This document shows positions 11,819 through 24,027 of a stretch of DNA of 64,000 bases, piece after piece. The notes beneath the pieces were generated by a model, which searched no databases, was not told the DNA's origin, and saw nothing but the letters and a program-made list of their open reading frames with translations. The translations under genes and the position numbers were made by a program. The stretch's first letter is position 1; each line of letters opens with the position of its first letter. Origin of the DNA: Escherichia coli (GTDB lineage Bacteria > Pseudomonadota > Gammaproteobacteria > Enterobacterales > Enterobacteriaceae); NCBI RefSeq assembly GCF_016026235.1, contig NZ_CP065613.1. The stretch is one strand, 5' to 3'.

Positions 11819-11908
11819 GTCACTCACTCTTTTTTGAATATCCATCCCTGGGGGGCTTTTATCGTCTTTGCTTTACCGCCAGGGCGTCGGCCCCAAGTAT
11901 AAAGCAGA

Positions 11909-11944
11909 TAAAAACAAAAACACCATTGCGCAGGCAATGGTGTT
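11909..11944 (-). terminator. Rho-independent terminator downstream of sra
   Basis: On the minus strand: stem AACACCATTGC, loop CTGC, stem GCAATGGTGTT, followed by TTTGTTTTT. Confidence 0.55.
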
Positions 11945-11974
11945 TAATCGTCATTGAGGACTGATGGTTATGAA

Positions 11975-12112
11975 TTACTTTTCAGCGGGGCGTTTTCTGC
12001 CGGTTGGGTTATTTACTACGCTGGATTTGTCACCTTCGGTAACTATTTTGCGCTGGTTAGAAATTTTATGGTCCAGTCCAAGAATATGACGTGCCTGACG
12101 GTTCGATTTCAT
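11975..12112 (-). CDS. sra: Stationary-phase-induced ribosome-associated protein (45 aa)
   Basis: Minus-strand translation [45 protein letters not shown]. Absent from the ORF track because it is under 60 aa. Confidence 0.85.
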
Positions 12113-12213
12113 TTTAACTCCTCAATCCTGTAGCTAGTTTTAAGGACAACATCGCCGTAGCGAAGAAACACGTGCTAAACCCCTAAATTAGGTTGCCGAT
12201 CAAGCATAGCACC

Positions 12214-12429
12214 TTAAAGCGTAGGGTGCTGGCCACTGACCACATAATTGATCGTTTGCTGGTAGATATCACTGAGGATGTCGTTATCAGAAGCTTCCAC
12301 CCATTTGGTCAGCTCCATGAGAATGTCATCTTCAGTGACAACACCGTGCTGTGCCCGAAGGCCTTGCTCAATGGCATTAACCAGAGCGGGTTCTGCTGTT
12401 GAATTTTCTGCCTGATAATAAGTAAACAT
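12214..12429 (-). CDS. bdm: Biofilm-dependent modulation protein
   Basis: Start at MFTYYQAENSTAEPALVNAIEQG (71 aa) inside the listed 92-aa ORF. Confidence 0.8.
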   Translation of the reverse strand: MFTYYQAENSTAEPALVNAIEQGLRAQHGVVTEDDILMELTKWVEASDNDILSDIYQQTINYVVSGQHPTL

Positions 12430-12645
12430 AGTGATTCTCCGTGTCTGTGTATTTATGGTGTCTGCTACGGATCGCAGATTTATAAAGCACATTCAGCATG
12501 GCAAATATTTGCCGCTTCGTTGTTAAGATTAGTCCTAGTTGATGATTTTTATATTTTAACTCCATGATATTCATAGGGATTGTGATTGGTATGATCCGAT
12601 TAATATTGATACAATATCTTTTGGGTTATATATTCCCGGTAATCT

Positions 12646-12681
12646 ATTGTGGGAATTTAATTTATTGTGGGAATTTAATTT
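12646..12681. repeat. Perfect tandem duplication, 2 x 18 bp (ATTGTGGGAATTTAATTT)
   Basis: Units at 12646-12663 and 12664-12681 are identical; lies in the bdm-osmC intergenic region about 110 bp upstream of osmC. Confidence 0.9.
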
Positions 12682-12792
12682 AAGTACAGAAGTAATATTT
12701 CTGCCGGATTTTTATTCGGAATATCCTGCTTATCCTCGTGCTGTTTCTCACGTAGTCTATAATTTCCTTTTTAAGCCCACAGGAGAGCAACA

Positions 12793-13224
12793 ATGACAAT
12801 CCATAAGAAAGGTCAGGCACACTGGGAAGGCGATATCAAACGCGGGAAGGGAACAGTATCCACCGAGAGTGGCGTGCTGAACCAACAGCCGTATGGATTT
12901 AACACGCGTTTTGAAGGCGAAAAAGGAACTAACCCTGAAGAACTGATTGGCGCAGCGCATGCCGCATGTTTCTCAATGGCGCTTTCATTAATGCTGGGGG
13001 AAGCGGGATTTACGCCAACATCGATTGATACCACCGCCGATGTGTCGCTGGATAAAGTGGATGCCGGTTTTGCGATTACGAAAATCGCACTGAAGAGTGA
13101 AGTTGCGGTGCCGGGTATTGATGCCTCTACCTTTGACGGCATCATCCAGAAAGCAAAAGCAGGATGCCCGGTTTCTCAGGTACTGAAAGCGGAAATTACG
13201 CTTGATTACCAGTTGAAATCGTAA
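12793..13224 (+). CDS. osmC: Osmotically inducible peroxiredoxin OsmC
   Basis: 143-aa ORF with OsmC/Ohr fold sequence and conserved Cys pair. Confidence 0.92.
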   Translation: MTIHKKGQAHWEGDIKRGKGTVSTESGVLNQQPYGFNTRFEGEKGTNPEELIGAAHAACFSMALSLMLGEAGFTPTSIDTTADVSLDKVDAGFAITKIALKSEVAVPGIDASTFDGIIQKAKAGCPVSQVLKAEITLDYQLKS

Positions 13225-13279
13225 AGCATTGCCGGATGACGCGTCAGGCGCGTGAATGCCTGATGCGTTGTTAGCATCT

Positions 13280-14206
13280 CTACAGCGCCCGCCAGCACCG
13301 GAGCTCACGTCCGTCCTCCCTTATTGTTAATGATTGCCGGACTTCACATCCGTGGGTTGCCAGAGGGCAACGTTCGTAGAAAAAACAGCCTTGCGGCAAC
13401 GTGCGGTTTCCTGGCAGTTCCGTTTTACGTAATGCCCATTCTTCCTCCAGCGGTTTATCAATGGCGGGGAGGGAATCCAGCAATAATCGGGTGTATGGAT
13501 GTGCCGGAGCCGTTAGCACCTGTTGCGCGTCGCCCAGTTCTACAATCTGCCCGAGATACATCACCGCCACCCGATCGCTCATATGACGTATCACCGAGAC
13601 ATTGTGTGAAATCAGCACATAAGTCAGCCCGTGATTTTCCTGTAGCGTTACCAGTAAATTGAGGATCTGCGCCTGCACGGAGATATCCAGCGCCGAGGTT
13701 GGCTCATCAAGCACAATCACGTCAGGCTGCGAAGAGAGTGCTCTGGCAATGGCGATGCGTTGCCGCTGCCCGCCGGAGAACGCATGAGGCAGGCGGTCGA
13801 GATACTCCGGACGAATACCCACCTGCACAGCCAGCTCCTCTGCCAACGCTCACCGCTGTTGTTCACTACTACGCTTAGCTATCCAGAGCGGTTCTGTGAT
13901 GATGCGCCACACCGGTAAGCGCGGATTAAGCGAAGAGAGCGGGTCCTGAAACACCATCTGCATAATGCGTTGTGAGCCTGAACGGATGTACTGCCCGTGG
14001 CTCGGTTGCAGCATGCCCATTAAAAGCTGTGCGAGGGTGCTTTTGCCGCAGCCTGACTCGCCGACGATCCCTAAGGTTTCACCACGGCGGATCTGTAAAT
14101 CAATACCATTAATGGCATGAACATGTTCCGTAGTTTTACCAAGCCAGTTTTTACGGGCCGGGAAATTGATATGGACGTCGCGTAACGTTAATAACGTGTC
14201 AGACAC
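13280..14206 (-). pseudogene. ddpF: Dipeptide ABC transporter ATPase DdpF interrupted by an in-frame TGA (minus-strand codon 119, plus coordinates 13850-13852)
   Basis: The 118-aa ORF (13850-14206, Walker A GESGCGKST) and the 188-aa ORF (13280-13846, LSGGQ and Walker B) are in the same frame, reading ...[18 protein letters not shown].... Total 309 codons equals the 308-aa DdpF I recall plus stop. Confidence 0.7.
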
Positions 14207-15167
14207 TTATGACCTCCTGCTGCGGATACCAACAGGCGCAGCGCTGGTTGTTGTCACCACACGCTGTCAGCGCCGGGACGTTTTCACACTGTGCACCTGC
14301 CGCATAGCAACGATCGCGAAAAGCGCAGCCGTCAGGCAAATGGGTGAGGTTTGGTACCGTCCCTGGAATGGCGGGTAATGGCTGGCGTGGTACTCCATGT
14401 TCTGGTGCGCATTGCAGCAAACCAATGGTATACGGATGCCGGGGATGATGGATAACGTCTGCCGTCACGCCGCTTTCAATTACGCTTCCGGCATACATCA
14501 CGTAAACGCTATCGCACAGTTGCGACACCACGGCCATATCATGGCTGATGAACAGTACCGCAGTTCCACTGGCGCGGGCTTTATGTTTAAGCAAACGCAG
14601 TACCTGCAACTGTACCGTGACGTCCAGCGCCGTAGTCGGTTCGTCGGCAATAATCAATTGCGGCTCGCAGGAAAATGCCAGCGCAATCATAACCCGCTGG
14701 CGCATACCACCTGAAAGCTCAAACGGATAGCGCGACATAACTTCCACGGCATCCGGGATTTGCATCTCTTCCAGCAGGGCAATCGCTTTAGCTCTGGCTT
14801 CCCGACGACTTATTGGTTGATGATGGCGGATTACGTCCATCATCTGAAGACCTATTCGACGTGTCGGATTAAGAGCGGTCATCGGTTCCTGAAAGATCAT
14901 CGCCACTCGTGCGCCGCGCCACTGACGAAGCTGTTTTTCCCGAGCGTTAAGAACATCTTCTCCCAGCAGTGAAATCTGCCCCCGATGTACGCAATAACTG
15001 CCCGTCGGTAGCAGACGCATAATCAGCATTGCGGTGACTGATTTACCTGAGCCGGATTCTCCCACCAGACCGACAATTTCACTGCGGTTAATCTGCAAGG
15101 ACACATTGTTGAGCGCGTGAACATCACCGTTAAAACCGGGGAAACTCAAATGCAGCTGTTGAATGTT
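14199..15167 (-). CDS. ddpD: Dipeptide ABC transporter ATPase DdpD, 5'-truncated at a deletion junction (native start and RBS missing)
   Basis: ABC ATPase (GESGSGKS, LSGGMRQR). The frame upstream of ...NIQQLHLSFPGF is closed by TAA at 15171-15173 and abuts the dosC fragment. Confidence 0.7.
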   Translation of the reverse strand, partial: NIQQLHLSFPGFNGDVHALNNVSLQINRSEIVGLVGESGSGKSVTAMLIMRLLPTGSYCVHRGQISLLGEDVLNAREKQLRQWRGARVAMIFQEPMTALNPTRRIGLQMMDVIRHHQPISRREARAKAIALLEEMQIPDAVEVMSRYPFELSGGMRQRVMIALAFSCEPQLIIADEPTTALDVTVQLQVLRLLKHKARASGTAVLFISHDMAVVSQLCDSVYVMYAGSVIESGVTADVIHHPRHPYTIGLLQCAPEHGVPRQPLPAIPGTVPNLTHLPDGCAFRDRCYAAGAQCENVPALTACGDNNQRCACWYPQQEVISV

Positions 15168-15952
15168 CTGTTATTCAAATTCCTGGTGTTACGCATGGTT
15201 TGATTGAAAATACCGTCGAAATCCTGAATCAGACGAGAGATATGGCCCACTTCAGCAATGCCGCTGAAATAATGTCGACCTTTATGGTTAAACCACAGGC
15301 CAAAATCAGCCTGGCTTAAAGGCAAACTACTGCCTAAATCAGAATCCAGCAGGATTTTATAGATGATATCTATTTCCCATGAAAGTATTGAGGCTATTTG
15401 CCGTTCTTTTTCTTCTTCGGCGTTTTCCAGTAACGAGAAGATACGATAGTTTTCATCTTCTTTTGAGGCACTACTGTCACTAAAGGTAAACGCGCGGGTC
15501 ATCACTTCCATAGCGATATCAATACTGTTAATCGAGAAATGGTAGACCTGAAGTTTTTCTGCGGCAGAATAATCCGAAGAGAAGATTACCGGATAGAGGA
15601 TCTTTTTCAGCACCCGAAACCCCATCTCGACAATTTCTACCGGAATTCCTATGCGGGCATGCACTTCCGCGACGGTATGCTGGATTTGTATTAGCCTTTC
15701 GACATCGTCAACCTGGGCAGAAAGCACGTTAATAATCCAGCGTTCCATCGCACTCTTCAACTGCCGCTCAACTTGTTCATTACTCAAGAATTCTTCGGCA
15801 TGCGGGTCGATGCGGACAATTCGATAAAACTCAATACTCAGATAATGAGCATGCGCAACGGCAATTTCCGCGGCTTTAGCACGAATGGGCGGATCTGCCT
15901 GTTCGACAAGCCCGGTCCACTCATCTTTCATTCTTTTAAAATACATCTCCAT
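15146..15952 (-). pseudogene. dosC: Diguanylate cyclase DosC, 3'-truncated: globin sensor and middle domain only, GGDEF domain absent
   Basis: MEMYFKRMKDEWTGLVEQ... matches DosC through ...NTRNLNNR, then reads TFNSCI-stop (268 aa versus about 460 expected). Confidence 0.7.
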
Positions 15953-16328
15953 AATTCACACCCTTATAAGGCTGGGAAATCAGACGGAATCAAAATGAAA
16001 CGCAACGTGCGAGATCGACTAACTGCACCATATTCTCCTGAAATATGAAGATATACTGAAAAGAAATAAGCGACTTAGGACAGTTTCAATCTACGCTACT
16101 GTTCTTCAGAAGAGTATAGCCCATCGTAATTATTTTTCGGTGACTGCGAATATCGTATGGTTTTTCATATTCATACATTTTTATTAGGGGGATTATGGCT
16201 GTTTAACTAAGTGTCGTTAATTGCGTGGTTAATTTGACTTTAGTAAGCATGATTGCTGGTGGGATAGTTCAAGAGGGTAACAAGCCAGTGGGTAAAGCAC
16301 CGGCTTGTTACAAAGTAAGAATGGGAGT

Positions 16329-17648
16329 TTAACTGCCCCAACGACTTTGCAGATAGCTGACCGCTTGTTGAGTCTGCGGTTTATTCAGATAGTCCTCACG
16401 GAACAAGATGGTGCCGCTAATTTCTGGTACCGCATCGTTAAGATCGAGCTGCTTTTTCAGTTCCGGTACGCCGCCGTTAATCATCCAGTCTGGCTCTATC
16501 TTTGAAGGTTCACCCACTTTATAGAAGGCGATACCGATATACAGGCGGGTCCTGGTCGGTTTAACGACATCCGCCCACCATTTTGCCAACACGTCATAAC
16601 GCGCGGCACTCCGTGAGAACGGCCAGTAAATTTGGGGAGCAATGTAATCCAGCAATCCTTGTTCCACCCATCGACGGGTGTCAGCGTAGGATTCGTCATA
16701 GGCTGCCGCGCCTCGGGTATCGGAACCGAGCGGATCGTGTGATCGGTTACGCCACACGCCTGCCGGGCTAACACCAAATTCGACTCCCGGCTTAATGCTT
16801 TTAATGGTGTGCGATACCTTTGCAATTAACTGCTGAGTATTGTTGCGCCGCCAGTCTGCTTTTGACGCAAATGCGCCTCCGTATTTACGGTACGTTTCGT
16901 TATCATTTAGCCGTGAACCCGGTGACTCCGTATAGAAATAGTCGTCAAACTGCACGCCATCTACGGGATAGCGGGAAACCACTTCTGCGACTATTGATGT
17001 GATCCAGTCCTGAACCTCAGGGATGCCCGGGTCGAGGACAAAGCGATCGCCAGACGTTCTGATCCAGTCGCGGTGTTGCACATAGACGCTCGCCGGTTGT
17101 TGAGGCAGAGTGCTATTCAGTTCCCTGATAGTACCGGGCTTCGTATTAACCGATACGCGATAGGGGTTAAACCAGGCGTGTACTTTCATCCCACGCTTGT
17201 GGGCTTCGTCGAGCATAAATTGCAGCGGATCGTAACCCGGATTTTCACCAATCTTACCGGTCATAAGATCGGACCACGGCAAAATTTTCGATGGCCACAG
17301 GGCGGTACCGTCCGGCTTGACCTGGAAAAAGACCGTGTTTATGCCGAGACGTTGCAGATGATCCAGTTTGTCGATCATCGCCTGTTGTTGTACACGGGCC
17401 CGGCTGGTGGGGTTACTAATGTTAACCGAGGAAACCGGTGGCCAGTCGAGCCGAGAAACCGTGGCCAGCCAGATGCCACGCATCGGTTGTGACGATTGTT
17501 GCGTCGTGGCTGGTGGCTTTGAACCTGCTGGTGGTGTCACCATGGACTCTGGAGGCGTGCTTTTACAACTACACAGTAAAAGTGCCAGTGCAACTAGTAT
17601 CGCTGGTCTTCTAATCGTTAATTTCTTGTTTCGGGAGCAGATATCCAT
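16329..17648 (-). CDS. yddW: Lipoprotein YddW (glycoside-hydrolase-like)
   Basis: 439-aa ORF with lipoprotein signal (LALLLCSC) followed by a TIM-barrel-like domain. Confidence 0.85.
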   Translation of the reverse strand: MDICSRNKKLTIRRPAILVALALLLCSCKSTPPESMVTPPAGSKPPATTQQSSQPMRGIWLATVSRLDWPPVSSVNISNPTSRARVQQQAMIDKLDHLQRLGINTVFFQVKPDGTALWPSKILPWSDLMTGKIGENPGYDPLQFMLDEAHKRGMKVHAWFNPYRVSVNTKPGTIRELNSTLPQQPASVYVQHRDWIRTSGDRFVLDPGIPEVQDWITSIVAEVVSRYPVDGVQFDDYFYTESPGSRLNDNETYRKYGGAFASKADWRRNNTQQLIAKVSHTIKSIKPGVEFGVSPAGVWRNRSHDPLGSDTRGAAAYDESYADTRRWVEQGLLDYIAPQIYWPFSRSAARYDVLAKWWADVVKPTRTRLYIGIAFYKVGEPSKIEPDWMINGGVPELKKQLDLNDAVPEISGTILFREDYLNKPQTQQAVSYLQSRWGS

Positions 17649-17723
17649 ATGTGCTGGTTTCCGGTAAACAGATGTGCGCTCATTCTCGTACTTATCCCGG
17701 TTAAGTCAATACGACAGCAAGCA

Positions 17724-17753
17724 CGAAAAAGGGAGCGATGACTTATCGCTCCC
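17724..17753 (-). terminator. Rho-independent terminator downstream of gadC
   Basis: On the minus strand: stem GGGAGCGAT / ATCGCTCCC with a 5-nt loop, followed by TTTTTCG. Confidence 0.5.
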
Positions 17754-17778
17754 TTGTCTTATAACCATTCAGACATGG

Positions 17779-19314
17779 TTAGTGTTTCTTGTCATTCATC
17801 ACAATATAGTGTGGTGAACGTGCACGCGGGTGCAGGAAGAAGTGACCTTTTGGTGCGTTCTGACTGTTGATTGGCTCCAGAGTGACGCCGGTATTCGCTT
17901 TGCCTTTACGATCATGAACAGCATAGAGAATAAAGGGCAGGGCAAGTACCACCAGGAAACTAACAACCAGTAATTCAACATACATATCGGTAGAATCACC
18001 CTGGATGTTATCCGGCGGCAGGAAGGAAACAATAAACGCCATAATTGAAGTCAGCAGACCGACAATTGCCACGACCAGTTTCACCCCTTTACCACCAGGG
18101 ATATTAAATGTGCGTTTTAAGTCAGGATGTTTAAGAACCAACACAATGTAGCCAATAAACAGCATGAAATAAGCACACAGATAAATCACCACCGTCAGCG
18201 CCAGAGCGATCAGGAAGGACATGTTGTTACCGCCACCGGTATTGGTGAGGATGATCAACGCGATAGAAGTAATCACCAGCTGCGAAATGACCAGCGTTAC
18301 CGGTACGCCATTTTTGTTCATTTTAGCGAATGCCGCTGGCAGCAGGTTTTTCTGCGCTGTGACATACATCCCGCGAGAAGGACCAACAATCCAGGAGGCG
18401 ATTTCCGCCAGAACACCCAGCAACAGCAGTGCGGAGATCACGCGAACCGTCCACTCAATTTCCGGTGCCACATGGGACATCAGAACGGTAAAGGTTTGCA
18501 TTACCCCTGCGGAGAGGTTGATTTCATTACCCGGAATGACCATCGCAATAGACAAACCACCAACAGAGCTTAAGCAGATTGCCGCCACCATCAGCAGTAA
18601 CATAGCCAGTGGATAGTCGCGCCCTGGGTTACTCATTTCATTGACGTGGGTTGCGGAAGCTTCTACGCCCATATAACTCAAAATGAAGGCAACAAATACA
18701 ACCAGGGTGCCCACTTTAGAGAAGTCAGGGAAGAAGGTCTTCGAATCCATTTCGATAGCAACGGGGGCACCGGAGTGCAGATAAATAGCCGCTAATGCGA
18801 TCAAAATAAATGCAGGTAACAGGATACCGGCGAAGAAGCCAACTTTAGCAATTCGCGCCGTGTATTTCGTGCCACCAAACTGCGTTAATGCCAGCGCCCA
18901 AAGAATGATGAGTGCTGCAATAGTTTTGGTAATGGGGTCTTCATTCAGCGCTGGCCATTTCAGGATGTAGGAGAGTGCCCCTAACACGAAATAGAGCATC
19001 GGAATAAAACCAATGGCGATTTGCAGATAGCCAAATGAGATCGCTGCAAATCCCCATCTCGGCCCCAGAGTATTTGATACCCAGGCGAAGACACCACCTT
19101 CTTCCCAGCCGTCGACGGTGGCCATTTCCGCAGCACAAAGTCCCACGGGAATAAACCATAAAATCCCGCCTAATAGCAGGAAGAAGACTAATGAAAAGCC
19201 CGATGTTGCGAAGGTAGGGTATTCATAAACAGCCATTACCATCGATGCCGTTATGGCAAAGAATCCGAGTAATGTGAGCTGCTTAGCTTTACCTGTCTGT
19301 ACTGATGTAGCCAT
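17779..19314 (-). CDS. gadC: Glutamate:GABA antiporter
   Basis: 511-aa APC-family transporter immediately downstream of gadB. Confidence 0.92.
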
Positions 19315-19469
19315 ATTATCCCCCTAAAACGGTATTCCTGTCGGAACCGCACCTGTTTTGTTCTGAAGCGTATTCAGAACAATATTTTCCGTTGCTGATG
19401 CCAGTGAACAGACTTTGGAAATTGTCCCGAAACGGGTTCGTTTCGGGACACCGTTACCGTTAAACGTTA

Positions 19470-20870
19470 TCAGGTATGTTTAAAGCTGTTCTGCTGGGCA
19501 ATACCCTGCAGTTTCGGGTGATCGCTGAGATATTTCAGGGAGGCTTTGTAGTCTTCCAGCAACAGTTCAGCAAAGTCCATTTCGAAGCCGCGACGACACA
19601 TAATGCGCATCACCACGATGTCGGTGGCTTCACCGCCGAGAGTGAAGGCCGGAACCTGCCAGCCGCGCAGACGCAGACGTTCAGAGAGGTCGTACAGGGT
19701 GTATCCCGGATCTTCACCATCTTTCAGTTTGAAGCAAACCGCCGGGATGCCTTCGTCCGGGCGACCCGTACAGATGAACTCATACGGCCCCAGTTTGGCG
19801 ATTTCATCCGCCAGATAAGCGGCAACCTGGTAAGAGGCGTTCTGTACTTTGGTGTAGCCTTCACGACCGAGGCGCAGGAATTCATAGTACTGTGCAATTA
19901 CCTGACCCGCCGGGCGGGAGAAGTTGATGGCGAAAGTACCAATTTGACCACCCAGGTAGTCAACGTTGAACACCAGTTCCTGCGGCAGCGCTTCTTCGTC
20001 ACGCCAGATAACCCAGCCGCAGCCCAGCGGAGCCAGACCGAATTTATGGCCTGAAGCACTGATCGATTTCACACGCGGCAGGCGGAAGTCCCAGACGATA
20101 TCCGGGGCGACGAACGGTGCCAGAAAGCCACCGCTGGCGGCGTCGATGTGCATGTCGATGTCGATACCGGTGTCGGCCTGGAATTTATCCAGCGCATCGT
20201 GCAGCGGTTGCGGGAACTCATAGTTACCGGTGTAGGTCACGCCGAAAGTCGGCACCACGCCGATGGTATTTTCGTCGCAGGCTTCAATCATGCGTTTCGG
20301 ATCCATAAACAACTGACCGGGGCGCATAGGGATCTCACGCAGCTCCACATCCCAGTAGCGGGCGAATTTATGCCAGCAGATTTGCACCGGACCGCACACC
20401 AGGTTTGGTTTATCCGTTGGTTTGCCTGCAGCTTCCATACGCTTGCGCCAACGCCATTTCATCGCCATCCCGCCGAGCATACAGGCCTCGGAAGAACCAA
20501 TGGTGTTGGTGCCAACGGCCTGACCATTTTTCGGCGCAGGCGCATGCCACAGATCGGCAACCATATTTACGCAACGCAGGTCGATGGCTGCGGATTGCGG
20601 ATATTCTTCTTTGTCGATCCAGTTTTTGTTAATGGATAAATCCATCAACTTGTGGACGTTTTCGTCGTCCCAGGTCTGGCAGAAAGTGGCCAGGTTCTGA
20701 CGAGCGTTGCCATCAAGATATAATTCATCATTGATAATCTGAAATGCGACATCGTCGCGCATTTCGTGCAGCGGAAAACGTTTTGATTCTGCGATAGTGG
20801 AAATAGACTTCGCACCAAAACGTGAATCGAGTAGTTCCGACCTTAAATCCGTTACTTGCTTCTTATCCAT
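19470..20870 (-). CDS. gadB: Glutamate decarboxylase beta
   Basis: Start at [19 protein letters not shown] (466 aa); PLP-lysine motif SGHKFG. Confidence 0.92.
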
Positions 20871-20949
20871 TTTAAACTCCTTAAAATGATTGGATCGCAT
20901 TAAAAAAGTAGGATTTATCGATAAAGTAAGCAAGTGCAAAGGACTCTGG

Positions 20950-20969
20950 TTTAAATAACAAAATCCTAA
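20950..20969 (-). promoter_or_regulatory. GAD box (GadE binding site) upstream of gadBC
   Basis: Minus-strand sequence TTAGGATTTTGTTATTTAAA, exact match to the 20-bp gad box as I recall it, about 80 bp upstream of the gadB start. Confidence 0.5.
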
Positions 20970-21231
20970 TGTTATTTATCGTGAGATATTATTGGAATAA
21001 TATTTTTTCATTAAAAAACAATACAATAGAGAATTCTTGGGTGGTGAAAAGGTGTTTTATGTTGTTATTTTTATGCGCTTTCTGTGCCTCCTGAATTATC
21101 ACGTAAAAATCAGACCTTAAAATATCACTATTAGTACTTTGTTATTATTTTGAACGAATTTATAAAATTATTACATAAAAATGGCGAATATTGCTAAAAT
21201 TCCCGCCAACGATGTGTTGACGGGGCTGTTA

Positions 21232-24027
21232 TTATTTTGGCAATAATACTCCGGTATAAGTATTTACCGGATGAGAAAGATATTGTTTAACGGCAGTGTT
21301 AACATTCTCTACCGTCATTTGTTTCAACAATTGCTCCTGCTCAGTCCATGCTACAGGATCGTCATATTGAATAAGACTATTTACAATGGTGTTCGCTAAT
21401 TGTTGAACGCTACGCTGTTGGATATCGAGGCTGCGCTGAACGTTTTGCTGGTATTCATTCAGTTCTTGCTCACTGATCCCTTTAGCCAGACGCTTAACCA
21501 TCACTTCATTCGCTAACGTTAACAGTTCATCATGTCGTTCTGGTTGACAAGTAAAAGCCAGCAAATGACTGATATCTTTGGCCTGAGGATCAACCGAGAG
21601 GCGAGAAGAAACGCTGTATGCCCCAGATGCCTGTTCACGAATATTAACGCGTAGATCTTTTGCCAGTGCGACGTTAAAAGCATCGAGCGCCATACGCGTC
21701 GCCAGATTAACAGGTGTCCGGGAATCATAACGCTTCCACTGTGAAACCTGTGCCACAGGTTCATTTTGTTCTTTTACAGTAACCGATGCGTTGTCCGTCG
21801 CGCGAGTTAATGGTTTACCTGCGGCTAATGGCGAATCAGAGTGTTTGATTGATCCTAAGTAACGCGTAATTAACGCCACGAGTTTGTCTTCTGCGACATT
21901 ACCGACAATGACAAACGTGATATCCGCTGGAGATGAAAACAACTGGCGATCGGCAGCCAGCGCATCCGCGGCAGTAAACTGTGCAATCTGATTTTCTTGC
22001 AGTAATTTCGTGCGGTCATCAGCATAGCGCGTCTCATACATCTGCTGGGCGAATTTCTCCGCTGGACGCTGGTCGAGCGTTTTCAACGCCTGAATTTGAG
22101 CATTTTGTAGCGATGCCCAAATATTGTCGTTAATCGTGCTGTGGGTGATTCGCTGGTTAATCAACTGGAAACCAGGTTCAGGGTTATTAGTCCGCGCGCT
22201 AACGGAGAGCAACGTATTCATGCCACTGACTTTACTGCTCATGGTTACCGAGTTTTCCGCACTCCAGCGTTTCAGGCTGGAAGAGGAGAGTTCGCCAACG
22301 CCGCTTCCGCTAACTGCTTTATTTGCCAGCGCGATAAGTGATTTTTGCTGCGCAGGGAAACTTAAATCGCCTTTATTCGATATGGCAATAATTTGTAGCT
22401 TTTGCTCTTCACCCGCGGATTTTGCCAGAATAACCCTGGCACCATTGGAAAGTGTTAATGATGTCAGATTCTCAGCCAGCGTTTCTTTGCTGCTAATTTC
22501 CGCCTGTGGGTCAGCGTCTACTGTTAACGATAAATTTCTGCCTGGGAAGATGTAAGCCGCCAGCTTTTTGTTGGCGTACTCTTTTTCCAGCGCCAGGATA
22601 GCCGCAGGAGACAATGCTTTATTGGCGGCAACCTCATTGTTTACCATTTGCTCCCAAAATGCGTCCTGGTTCTTTCTTAACTGCTGCCATTTTTCCGTCA
22701 GACTTTGCACGGTAATTTGCTGCCACAGACGTTTCGAAAGTTGATATGTCTCTTCCGGCGACAAGAACGGCGTATTATTTAATGAGCTTGATGCCAGGCG
22801 ACTGGTCAGCATACGTAAATCACGTTCAGCTTGCTGATCAACCGCATTATTCAGCCAGGTGAGGCGGGTAGATTTGACATCATCGAGTTCTTCAGCAGAA
22901 AAACCATGCTGATCAATGGTTGCCAACTCTGCCATTAATGCATTCGCAGCATCCTGCATATTATCGTCTCGTGCATTTACACGGAAAAACAGCGACTGAT
23001 AATCGGGTGCAATTCTAACGCTGCGCGCAGTGCCGCCAGAAATAGTCTTCAACTCGCCCGACTGTATGCGTTCCTGCAGACGTTGATTGAACAGCTGAAC
23101 TAACATGCTCCATTCAGCTTGTTCGATAAAGCTTTGCTCATCGTTCACTTGTACCATTGGCAGGCGATAATAGAGTGCGATGCCGTTCACCCGGTTTTCT
23201 TTATCATTAATGATATTAAAGCGCAGGTGATTTTCGGCTTTTGTCGGCCAGACGCGATTTTCAGCTGCTTTGTTAGCCGGAAGCTTACTTAAATTATCCT
23301 TTATCAGCGCCAGCGCTTCTTTACTGTCGATATCGCCGACCACGATAAAGGTCATATTATTTGGTTGATACCAGCGTTGATAAAATTGGCGCAATTGTGC
23401 CGGTGTGACCGTGGCGACAGTATCCATCAGGCCGATAGGTTCACGGTCTAAATTACGGGTATTAGCCAGCAGGAAAGGGCGGCGCGCCTGAGAGGTGCGC
23501 CATTTCGCATCCTGATGGGCACGCCATTCCTCAGTAATTACGCCACGTTCAGCGTCTACTTCGAGTTTTTCAAAGGTTGCGGCATTACTCCATTCACTGA
23601 AGATTGCCATCACTTGTTGCAGATTTTGTTTCTGCGTAGTTGGTAAACTCACCTGATACACCGTTTCGTCATAGCTGGTATAGGCATTAACATCGCGACC
23701 AAAACGCAGGCCCATTGACTCAAATGTTTCGATGACTTTATTACCCGGCCATGTTTTTGTGCCGTTAAACATCATATGTTCTACAAAATGAGCCACGCCG
23801 CGCTCATTGTCTTCTTCCTGCAATGAACCGGTATGAATTTGCAGCCATAAATTTACCTGATCCTTTGGATGAGCATGCGGATAAATCATATATCGCAAGC
23901 CATTGTCCAGTTGCCCGGTAATTAACTTTTCATCCTGCGGTAAGGCGGCGGCAATCAGCCGCCCGGGGAGCAACAGAGTTGCCACTAACGTCAGTAAGAA
24001 ACAGAGGTTTCTCATAATTATCTCCAT
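21232..24027 (-). CDS. pqqL: Periplasmic M16-family zinc protease PqqL
   Basis: 931-aa ORF with signal peptide and HxxEH zinc motif (HFVEHMMF). Confidence 0.85.
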   Translation of the reverse strand: MEIIMRNLCFLLTLVATLLLPGRLIAAALPQDEKLITGQLDNGLRYMIYPHAHPKDQVNLWLQIHTGSLQEEDNERGVAHFVEHMMFNGTKTWPGNKVIETFESMGLRFGRDVNAYTSYDETVYQVSLPTTQKQNLQQVMAIFSEWSNAATFEKLEVDAERGVITEEWRAHQDAKWRTSQARRPFLLANTRNLDREPIGLMDTVATVTPAQLRQFYQRWYQPNNMTFIVVGDIDSKEALALIKDNLSKLPANKAAENRVWPTKAENHLRFNIINDKENRVNGIALYYRLPMVQVNDEQSFIEQAEWSMLVQLFNQRLQERIQSGELKTISGGTARSVRIAPDYQSLFFRVNARDDNMQDAANALMAELATIDQHGFSAEELDDVKSTRLTWLNNAVDQQAERDLRMLTSRLASSSLNNTPFLSPEETYQLSKRLWQQITVQSLTEKWQQLRKNQDAFWEQMVNNEVAANKALSPAAILALEKEYANKKLAAYIFPGRNLSLTVDADPQAEISSKETLAENLTSLTLSNGARVILAKSAGEEQKLQIIAISNKGDLSFPAQQKSLIALANKAVSGSGVGELSSSSLKRWSAENSVTMSSKVSGMNTLLSVSARTNNPEPGFQLINQRITHSTINDNIWASLQNAQIQALKTLDQRPAEKFAQQMYETRYADDRTKLLQENQIAQFTAADALAADRQLFSSPADITFVIVGNVAEDKLVALITRYLGSIKHSDSPLAAGKPLTRATDNASVTVKEQNEPVAQVSQWKRYDSRTPVNLATRMALDAFNVALAKDLRVNIREQASGAYSVSSRLSVDPQAKDISHLLAFTCQPERHDELLTLANEVMVKRLAKGISEQELNEYQQNVQRSLDIQQRSVQQLANTIVNSLIQYDDPVAWTEQEQLLKQMTVENVNTAVKQYLSHPVNTYTGVLLPK

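Follow-up and report, generated by a model that had tools for sequence, protein, structure and literature searches.

The DNA analysed here is a stretch of 64,000 nucleotides from Escherichia coli, called the window throughout. Positions 11000-20000 of the window hold the osmC-ddpF-ddpD...dosC-digH(yddW)-gadC region. Between the intact genes osmC and digH, the first part of dosC runs directly into a ddpD gene that has lost its beginning, and ddpF follows (Table 1).

Table 1. Positions of the features around the dosC-ddpD join in the window.
Feature	Position	Strand	Basis
osmC, intact flanking gene on the ddpF side	12793..13224	+	ORF list, K-12 annotation
ddpF pseudogene, nonsense codon R119* (CGA>TGA) at 13852-13850	13280..14206	-	Codon-by-codon comparison with K-12 and FDAARGOS_943
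ddpD remnant without its first 19-20 nt, ATG and RBS; reaches the native stop	14199..15165	-	Sequence, ORF list, protein comparison; NCBIfam ABC-ATPase matches
Deletion junction	15165..15167	-	blastn HSP ends and three-way display against K-12 and FDAARGOS_943
dosC' stub ORF, 268 aa (262 native residues plus TFNSCI), then TGA	15952..15146	-	ORF list and protein comparison
TAA of dosC origin, closing the ddpD frame upstream of the junction	15171..15173	-	Direct sequence reading
dosC upstream (promoter/leader) region, intact, between digH and dosC	15953..16328	-	Inside the 98.7% K-12 HSP
digH (yddW), intact flanking gene on the dosC side	16329..17648	-	ORF list, K-12 annotation

A blastn alignment to K-12 (NC_000913.3, 1553000-1573000; L001) gives two collinear HSPs, which meet at window position 15166 and have 1 nt in common. 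In the window, K-12 position 1,566,354 (dosC nt 787) abuts position 1,558,998 (ddpD nt 20), and the K-12 interval 1,558,999-1,566,354 is missing, a loss of 7,356 bp. On the left, the dosC flank stops at 15167/15166 (nt 787); on the right, the ddpD flank begins at 15166/15165 (nt 20/21). Either of them could supply the A at 15166. Both flanks are collinear and co-oriented with the reference, and their identity to K-12 is 98.3-98.7% over kilobases. Chance resemblance is not an issue for flanks that are 98-99% identical to the reference over such lengths. The window is otherwise collinear with K-12 throughout.

According to the K-12 annotation, the missing interval comprises dosC codons 263-460, dosP, ddpX, ddpA, ddpB and ddpC, together with the first 19-20 nt of ddpD. 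A blastn search with this K-12 segment gives no match within the 64-kb window. The initial annotation had proposed a fusion of dosC to ddpD after about codon 262, with dosP and ddpXABC lost, and the alignments to K-12 and to FDAARGOS_943 agree with it exactly. Its estimate of about 7 kb missing between the K-12 loci compares with 7,356 bp in the alignment. The genes that it listed as lost, those for DosP, the dipeptidase, the binding protein and the permeases, all lie inside the deleted interval. The alignment it suggested for defining the interval and any microhomology yields the K-12 coordinates above and an overlap of 1 nt only. It had placed the site at 15146-15173; the junction does fall inside this range, but the physical junction is narrower.

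We compared the junction with K-12 and FDAARGOS_943 in a three-way display, and no IS end, terminal inverted repeat, filler or target duplication is present at the junction. A direct repeat of several nucleotides at both breakpoints was not found either, and the 1-nt overlap is about what chance would give. The pentamer AACAG lies close to each breakpoint without being in register with the junction, and a repeat-mediated origin was rejected. The junction string TTTGAATAACAGAACATTCAACAGCTGCAT is a clean lineage-specific signature for PCR or k-mer searches.

The closest complete genome, FDAARGOS_943 (L003), carries the whole interval and is 99.85-99.96% identical to the window on both flanks. 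At least 80% of the interval is covered in 4,206 of 5,426 complete E. coli genomes. Because FDAARGOS_943 and most complete genomes carry the interval, and because both border genes are truncated, the change is a deletion. When positions 30000-52000 of the window were used as the query, the closest complete genomes were only about 98.2-98.6% identical; the lineage is not represented among the complete genomes in that search. In FDAARGOS_943 itself, ddpB and digH are annotated with internal stops, maeA is frameshifted and an IS1 lies between sra and maeA; the wider clade may be accumulating pseudogenes.

The exact 268-aa stub (STL95358.1) is present on 13 contigs, and three assemblies contain the exact junction string. 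One of them is a 4.56-Mb contig in NCBI (GCA_900449985.1, UGFA01000002.1; L004), which is 100% identical to window positions 9146-21952. The Logan assembly of SRR8186592 (L006) is likewise 100% identical to the window. The assembly of SRR30892832 (L005) differs from the window by 8 SNPs in 7.1 kb, all of them in gadB. Since they are near-identical, the junction-bearing assemblies stand for one clone or a tight lineage.

The gadB SNPs of SRR30892832 form a 480-bp cluster (window 19906-20385, L005 357-836), which suggests gadA/gadB gene conversion or the collapse of paralogues in a short-read assembly. With all 8 SNPs inside these 480 bp, we ruled out that this assembly stands for a divergent lineage and an old deletion.

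What remains of DosC is the N-terminal part of the protein. Residues 1-262 of the stub are identical to DosC of K-12 and of FDAARGOS_943, and this native part ends in ...NTRNLNNR. The next six residues, TFNSCI, are read out of frame from ddpD sequence, and the TGA at 15148-15146 closes the ORF. The stub has the N-terminal sensor globin (Pfam Protoglobin, residues 27-155), and in the PDB it matches the DosC globin 4zva (residues 8-170, E=1.8e-102). Its middle domain is incomplete. Pfam DosC_2nd matches residues 180-264 with model positions 1-85 out of 110, and residues 173-264 match 92 of the 126 residues of 4zvc, the crystal construct of the DosC middle domain. The stub has no Pfam match to a GGDEF domain; in K-12 DosC the GGDEF motif sits at residue 374, inside the deleted part. 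What is left, the globin and roughly three quarters of the middle domain, cannot act as a diguanylate cyclase or make c-di-GMP, because the GGDEF domain is gone.

The DosC reading of the initial annotation, intact through NTRNLNNR and then TFNSCI and a stop, is confirmed by these comparisons. Its description of a globin-only stub is right about the globin being kept, but the stub also keeps 85 of the 110 Pfam positions of the middle domain. The same annotation described a ddpD without its first codons, start codon and RBS, closed upstream by the TAA at 15171-15173; reading the sequence bears out every part of this.

In detail, ddpD has lost six codons and 1-2 nt of codon 7. After the TAA, the ddpD frame reads CAG AAC ATT..., which translates to Q-N-IQQLHLSFPGFNG; the K-12 DdpD counterpart is MTQPVLDIQQLH, and the N-terminus of K-12 DdpD is MTQPVLDIQQLHLSFPGFNG. 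An in-frame ddpD TTG at 15149-15147 overlaps the TGA of the stub (TTGA), and no Shine-Dalgarno sequence can be read ahead of this TTG. Termination followed by reinitiation of DdpD' at TTGA is conceivable from the sequence. DdpD' retains the Walker A region and the native C-terminus.

DdpD also differs from K-12 by G35S (window ~15064-15066), a few residues upstream of Walker A, and by D136A and L269P. These three substitutions predate the deletion, since the ddpD DNA is 100% identical to that of FDAARGOS_943.

The nonsense codon in ddpF is found neither in K-12 nor in FDAARGOS_943, and it occurs in other assemblies of the lineage. It splits ddpF into ORFs of 118 aa and 188 aa; the gene calls in L004 and L005 are 118 aa and 182 aa. 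This nonsense codon would fit relaxed selection on an operon already useless by then. Both orphan ATPase genes are decaying, ddpD without a start codon and ddpF interrupted at codon 119.

The deletion also changes what can drive the remnants. The ddpXABCDF genes form a single operon transcribed from a sigma-54/NtrC-dependent ddpX promoter (PMC8743547). Because the operon runs from the ddpX promoter, the ddpD and ddpF remnants have lost their own promoter and now lie downstream of the dosC promoter. The intact region between digH and dosC would thus be the sole upstream transcription signal left for dosC'-ddpD'-ddpF'. A scan of positions 14900-16400 for promoters and terminators found nothing above the expectation from shuffled sequence; one sigma-70-like match lies at 16220-16192, and this count is no higher than in the shuffles.

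The consequences would fall on two systems. The losses would include the phosphodiesterase DosP, the dipeptidase DdpX, the binding protein DdpA, the permeases DdpB and DdpC, and the ddpX promoter. The Ddp set for D-Ala-D-Ala import and hydrolysis is broken: ddpXABC and the ddpX promoter region are deleted, ddpD has no start and ddpF carries its nonsense codon. Scavenging of D-Ala-D-Ala is induced by nitrogen limitation (PMC8743547). DosC and DosP are an O2-tuned 'push-pull' c-di-GMP pair linked to PNPase and to curli and PNAG regulation (PMC11543664, PMC5635171). The two have been suggested to work as a local rheostat close to PNPase, and DosP is said to be the c-di-GMP phosphodiesterase of greatest abundance in the stationary phase (PMC11543664). 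We infer that the strain would lack O2-tuned local control of c-di-GMP as well as the import and hydrolysis of D-Ala-D-Ala by which this dipeptide is scavenged.

The window differs from K-12 at several other places. An IS2 of 1,331 bp occupies positions 36356-37686 within the fimbrial adhesin gene ydeQ, between the copies of a 5-bp GTAAT duplication; K-12 has no such element at this site. Against the NCBIfam IS2 TnpB model, the InsD-like ORF of this IS2 scores 727 bits. An insertion of 1,449 bp that K-12 lacks (46748-48196) lies inside an autotransporter gene of the yneO/ECSE_1600 type, with a run of C on either flank. It codes for a 398-aa 'RNA-guided transposase' of the IS110 family (NF033542, 238 bits). 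In the ydeT/yneL region, the 2.9 kb at 40243-43161 correspond to only 574 bp in K-12, so that K-12 appears to hold a deletion and the window the fuller fimbrial-usher region. The HSPs against K-12 overlap at 8341-8552; this implies that the region between fdnI and yddM is about 178 bp longer in the window, by locally repeated sequence.

We are highly confident that the dosC-ddpD join is a genuine, single chromosomal deletion of 7,356 bp in one E. coli lineage (GCA_900449985.1 and near-identical isolates), that it is a loss of function, and that it arose most probably by illegitimate recombination. In one step, dosC nt 787 would have been joined straight to ddpD nt 20/21, two genes that face the same way. 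The join was most probably made without homology: the junction has no IS and an overlap of 1 nt only, and illegitimate recombination is for this reason the most probable route.

A real deletion could still have arisen in vitro, while a culture-collection strain was stored or passaged, and would then not be a natural marker of the lineage. The junction contigs are near-identical and differ only by the 8 clustered SNPs in gadB. The exact junction is present in 0 of 5,426 complete E. coli genomes, and its exact 30-mer has no match in JGI metagenome contigs. Against an origin in culture, the ddpF nonsense codon is a second, independent lesion of the remnant operon and suggests a longer decay, and the 13 contigs with the junction come from several samples. 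Neither of the two points is decisive, and we consider an in vitro origin unlikely.

The deletion could also have been mediated by an IS, for example as an adjacent deletion by IS1, if the IS was afterwards lost precisely. There is a precedent at the same locus in EC596, where dosC (nt 833) is followed by IS1 and ddpF. An IS1 is also found nearby in the relative FDAARGOS_943, and the window holds an IS2 and an IS110-family element elsewhere. However, the junction shows neither IS sequence nor a terminal inverted repeat nor a target duplication, and the flanks abut with a 1-nt overlap. The clean removal of an IS would require a second rare event. We therefore regard this route as very improbable, and illegitimate recombination is the route we keep.

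An altogether different possibility is that the fusion is functional and was selected. The haem-globin stub, expressed from the dosC promoter, would then be an O2-binding or dominant-negative protein, and DdpD' would be made by reinitiation at TTGA. It would be in keeping with this that the region upstream of dosC and the 262 codons are unmutated, that the stop of the stub overlaps the in-frame TTG of ddpD, and that DdpD' keeps its Walker A region and C-terminus. An unmutated stub is uninformative at such low divergence, however. The cut in the middle domain at 85 of 110 model positions makes folding and dimerisation doubtful, the TTG is not preceded by a Shine-Dalgarno sequence, the partner DdpF has a nonsense codon, and the permeases and the binding protein are gone. 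A functional fusion is hence a highly doubtful reading, and loss of function the one we hold to.

That dosC and ddpD reads were falsely joined while the interval is really in the genome, the artefact that the initial annotation had named as its own refutation, is scarcely credible: nothing specific speaks for it beyond the window being a single assembly, the breakpoints offer no repeat able to cause a collapse, and misassembly is excluded because the identical junction string recurs in a long NCBI contig and in Logan assemblies of two different SRA runs, three independent assemblies among 13 contigs overall.

How unusual is such a loss? With K-12 queries, at least 80% of dosC is covered in 4,294 of the 5,426 complete genomes (79%) and at least 80% of ddpXABC in 4,265 (78.6%), with 1,143 genomes giving no ddpXABC match. 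For dosP the same coverage is reached in 5,305 genomes (97.8%), and 79 genomes have no match at all. Loss of dosC and ddp is common (dosC and ddpXABC are missing from about 21% of complete genomes), and loss of dosP is uncommon. The junction described here is rare and lineage-specific, yet as a loss-of-function allele it is ordinary, at a site which has been broken repeatedly in E. coli and Shigella lineages. It adds one more data point on how plastic the c-di-GMP network of E. coli is known to be, and raises no new mechanistic question.

A similar case is a subset of O157:H7 strains (for example F7349, NZ_CP038363.1; L002). There, too, a single deletion of about 7.5 kb leads from dosC into ddpD without any IS and takes dosP and ddpXABC with it. 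Its breakpoints lie elsewhere, at dosC nt 1242 and ddpD nt 590, and the flanks overlap by 3 nt (L002 4049-5685). At least 8 complete genomes share this deletion, which arose independently in another lineage; other O157:H7 strains are intact.

Two further configurations occur at the same place. In EC596 (NZ_CP156718.1; L009), dosC is likewise truncated, 46 nt further in than here, and dosP and ddpXABC are lost, but its junction carries an IS1 and the deletion also takes in ddpD and the start of ddpF (L009 3215-4816). The ST131-type strain JJ1887 (L010) has likewise lost dosC function and the ddp operon at the same chromosomal site. In this strain, however, dosP is intact, dosC persists only as a 47-bp piece and its last 165 nt, ddpXABCDF are all absent, and osmC adjoins dosP. 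Judged on a sample of rows, the ST131-type configuration probably makes up most of the roughly 21% of genomes without ddp.

A related remnant exists outside E. coli. The dgcO gene of S. flexneri 2457T (S1870) carries a truncating deletion and has no GGDEF domain, and it gave no signal in a c-di-GMP reporter assay (PMC11327459). As in the window, a DosC remnant without GGDEF domain is left. S. flexneri is still listed as having pdeO/dosP (S1871), whereas here dosP and ddpXABC were lost in the same event.

The recurrence of independent deletions over this interval is the only mildly interesting angle, and it might reflect selection. At least four independent events on one short stretch (this lineage, the O157:H7 subset, EC596 and the ST131 type), together with the truncation of dgcO in Shigella, could mean that switching off the O2-responsive c-di-GMP module of DosC and DosP, with or without ddp, is positively selected in particular niches. 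The recurrence would then be due neither to neutral decay nor to a fragile site, and the globin stub, unmutated and behind its native promoter, might retain a role independent of c-di-GMP. We think it rather improbable that this explanation is correct.

That dosC (dgcO/yddV) and dosP (pdeO/yddU) have been lost in some E. coli strains and kept in others was reportedly described by Povolotsky and Hengge in 2016 (as cited in PMC5635171). Frequent loss of DosC among E. coli is already part of published surveys (Cimdins et al. 2017, PMC5635171). Compared with the losses surveyed there, the deletion in the window hits the same genes. It differs in that it also removes dosP, which 97.8% of the complete genomes have kept.
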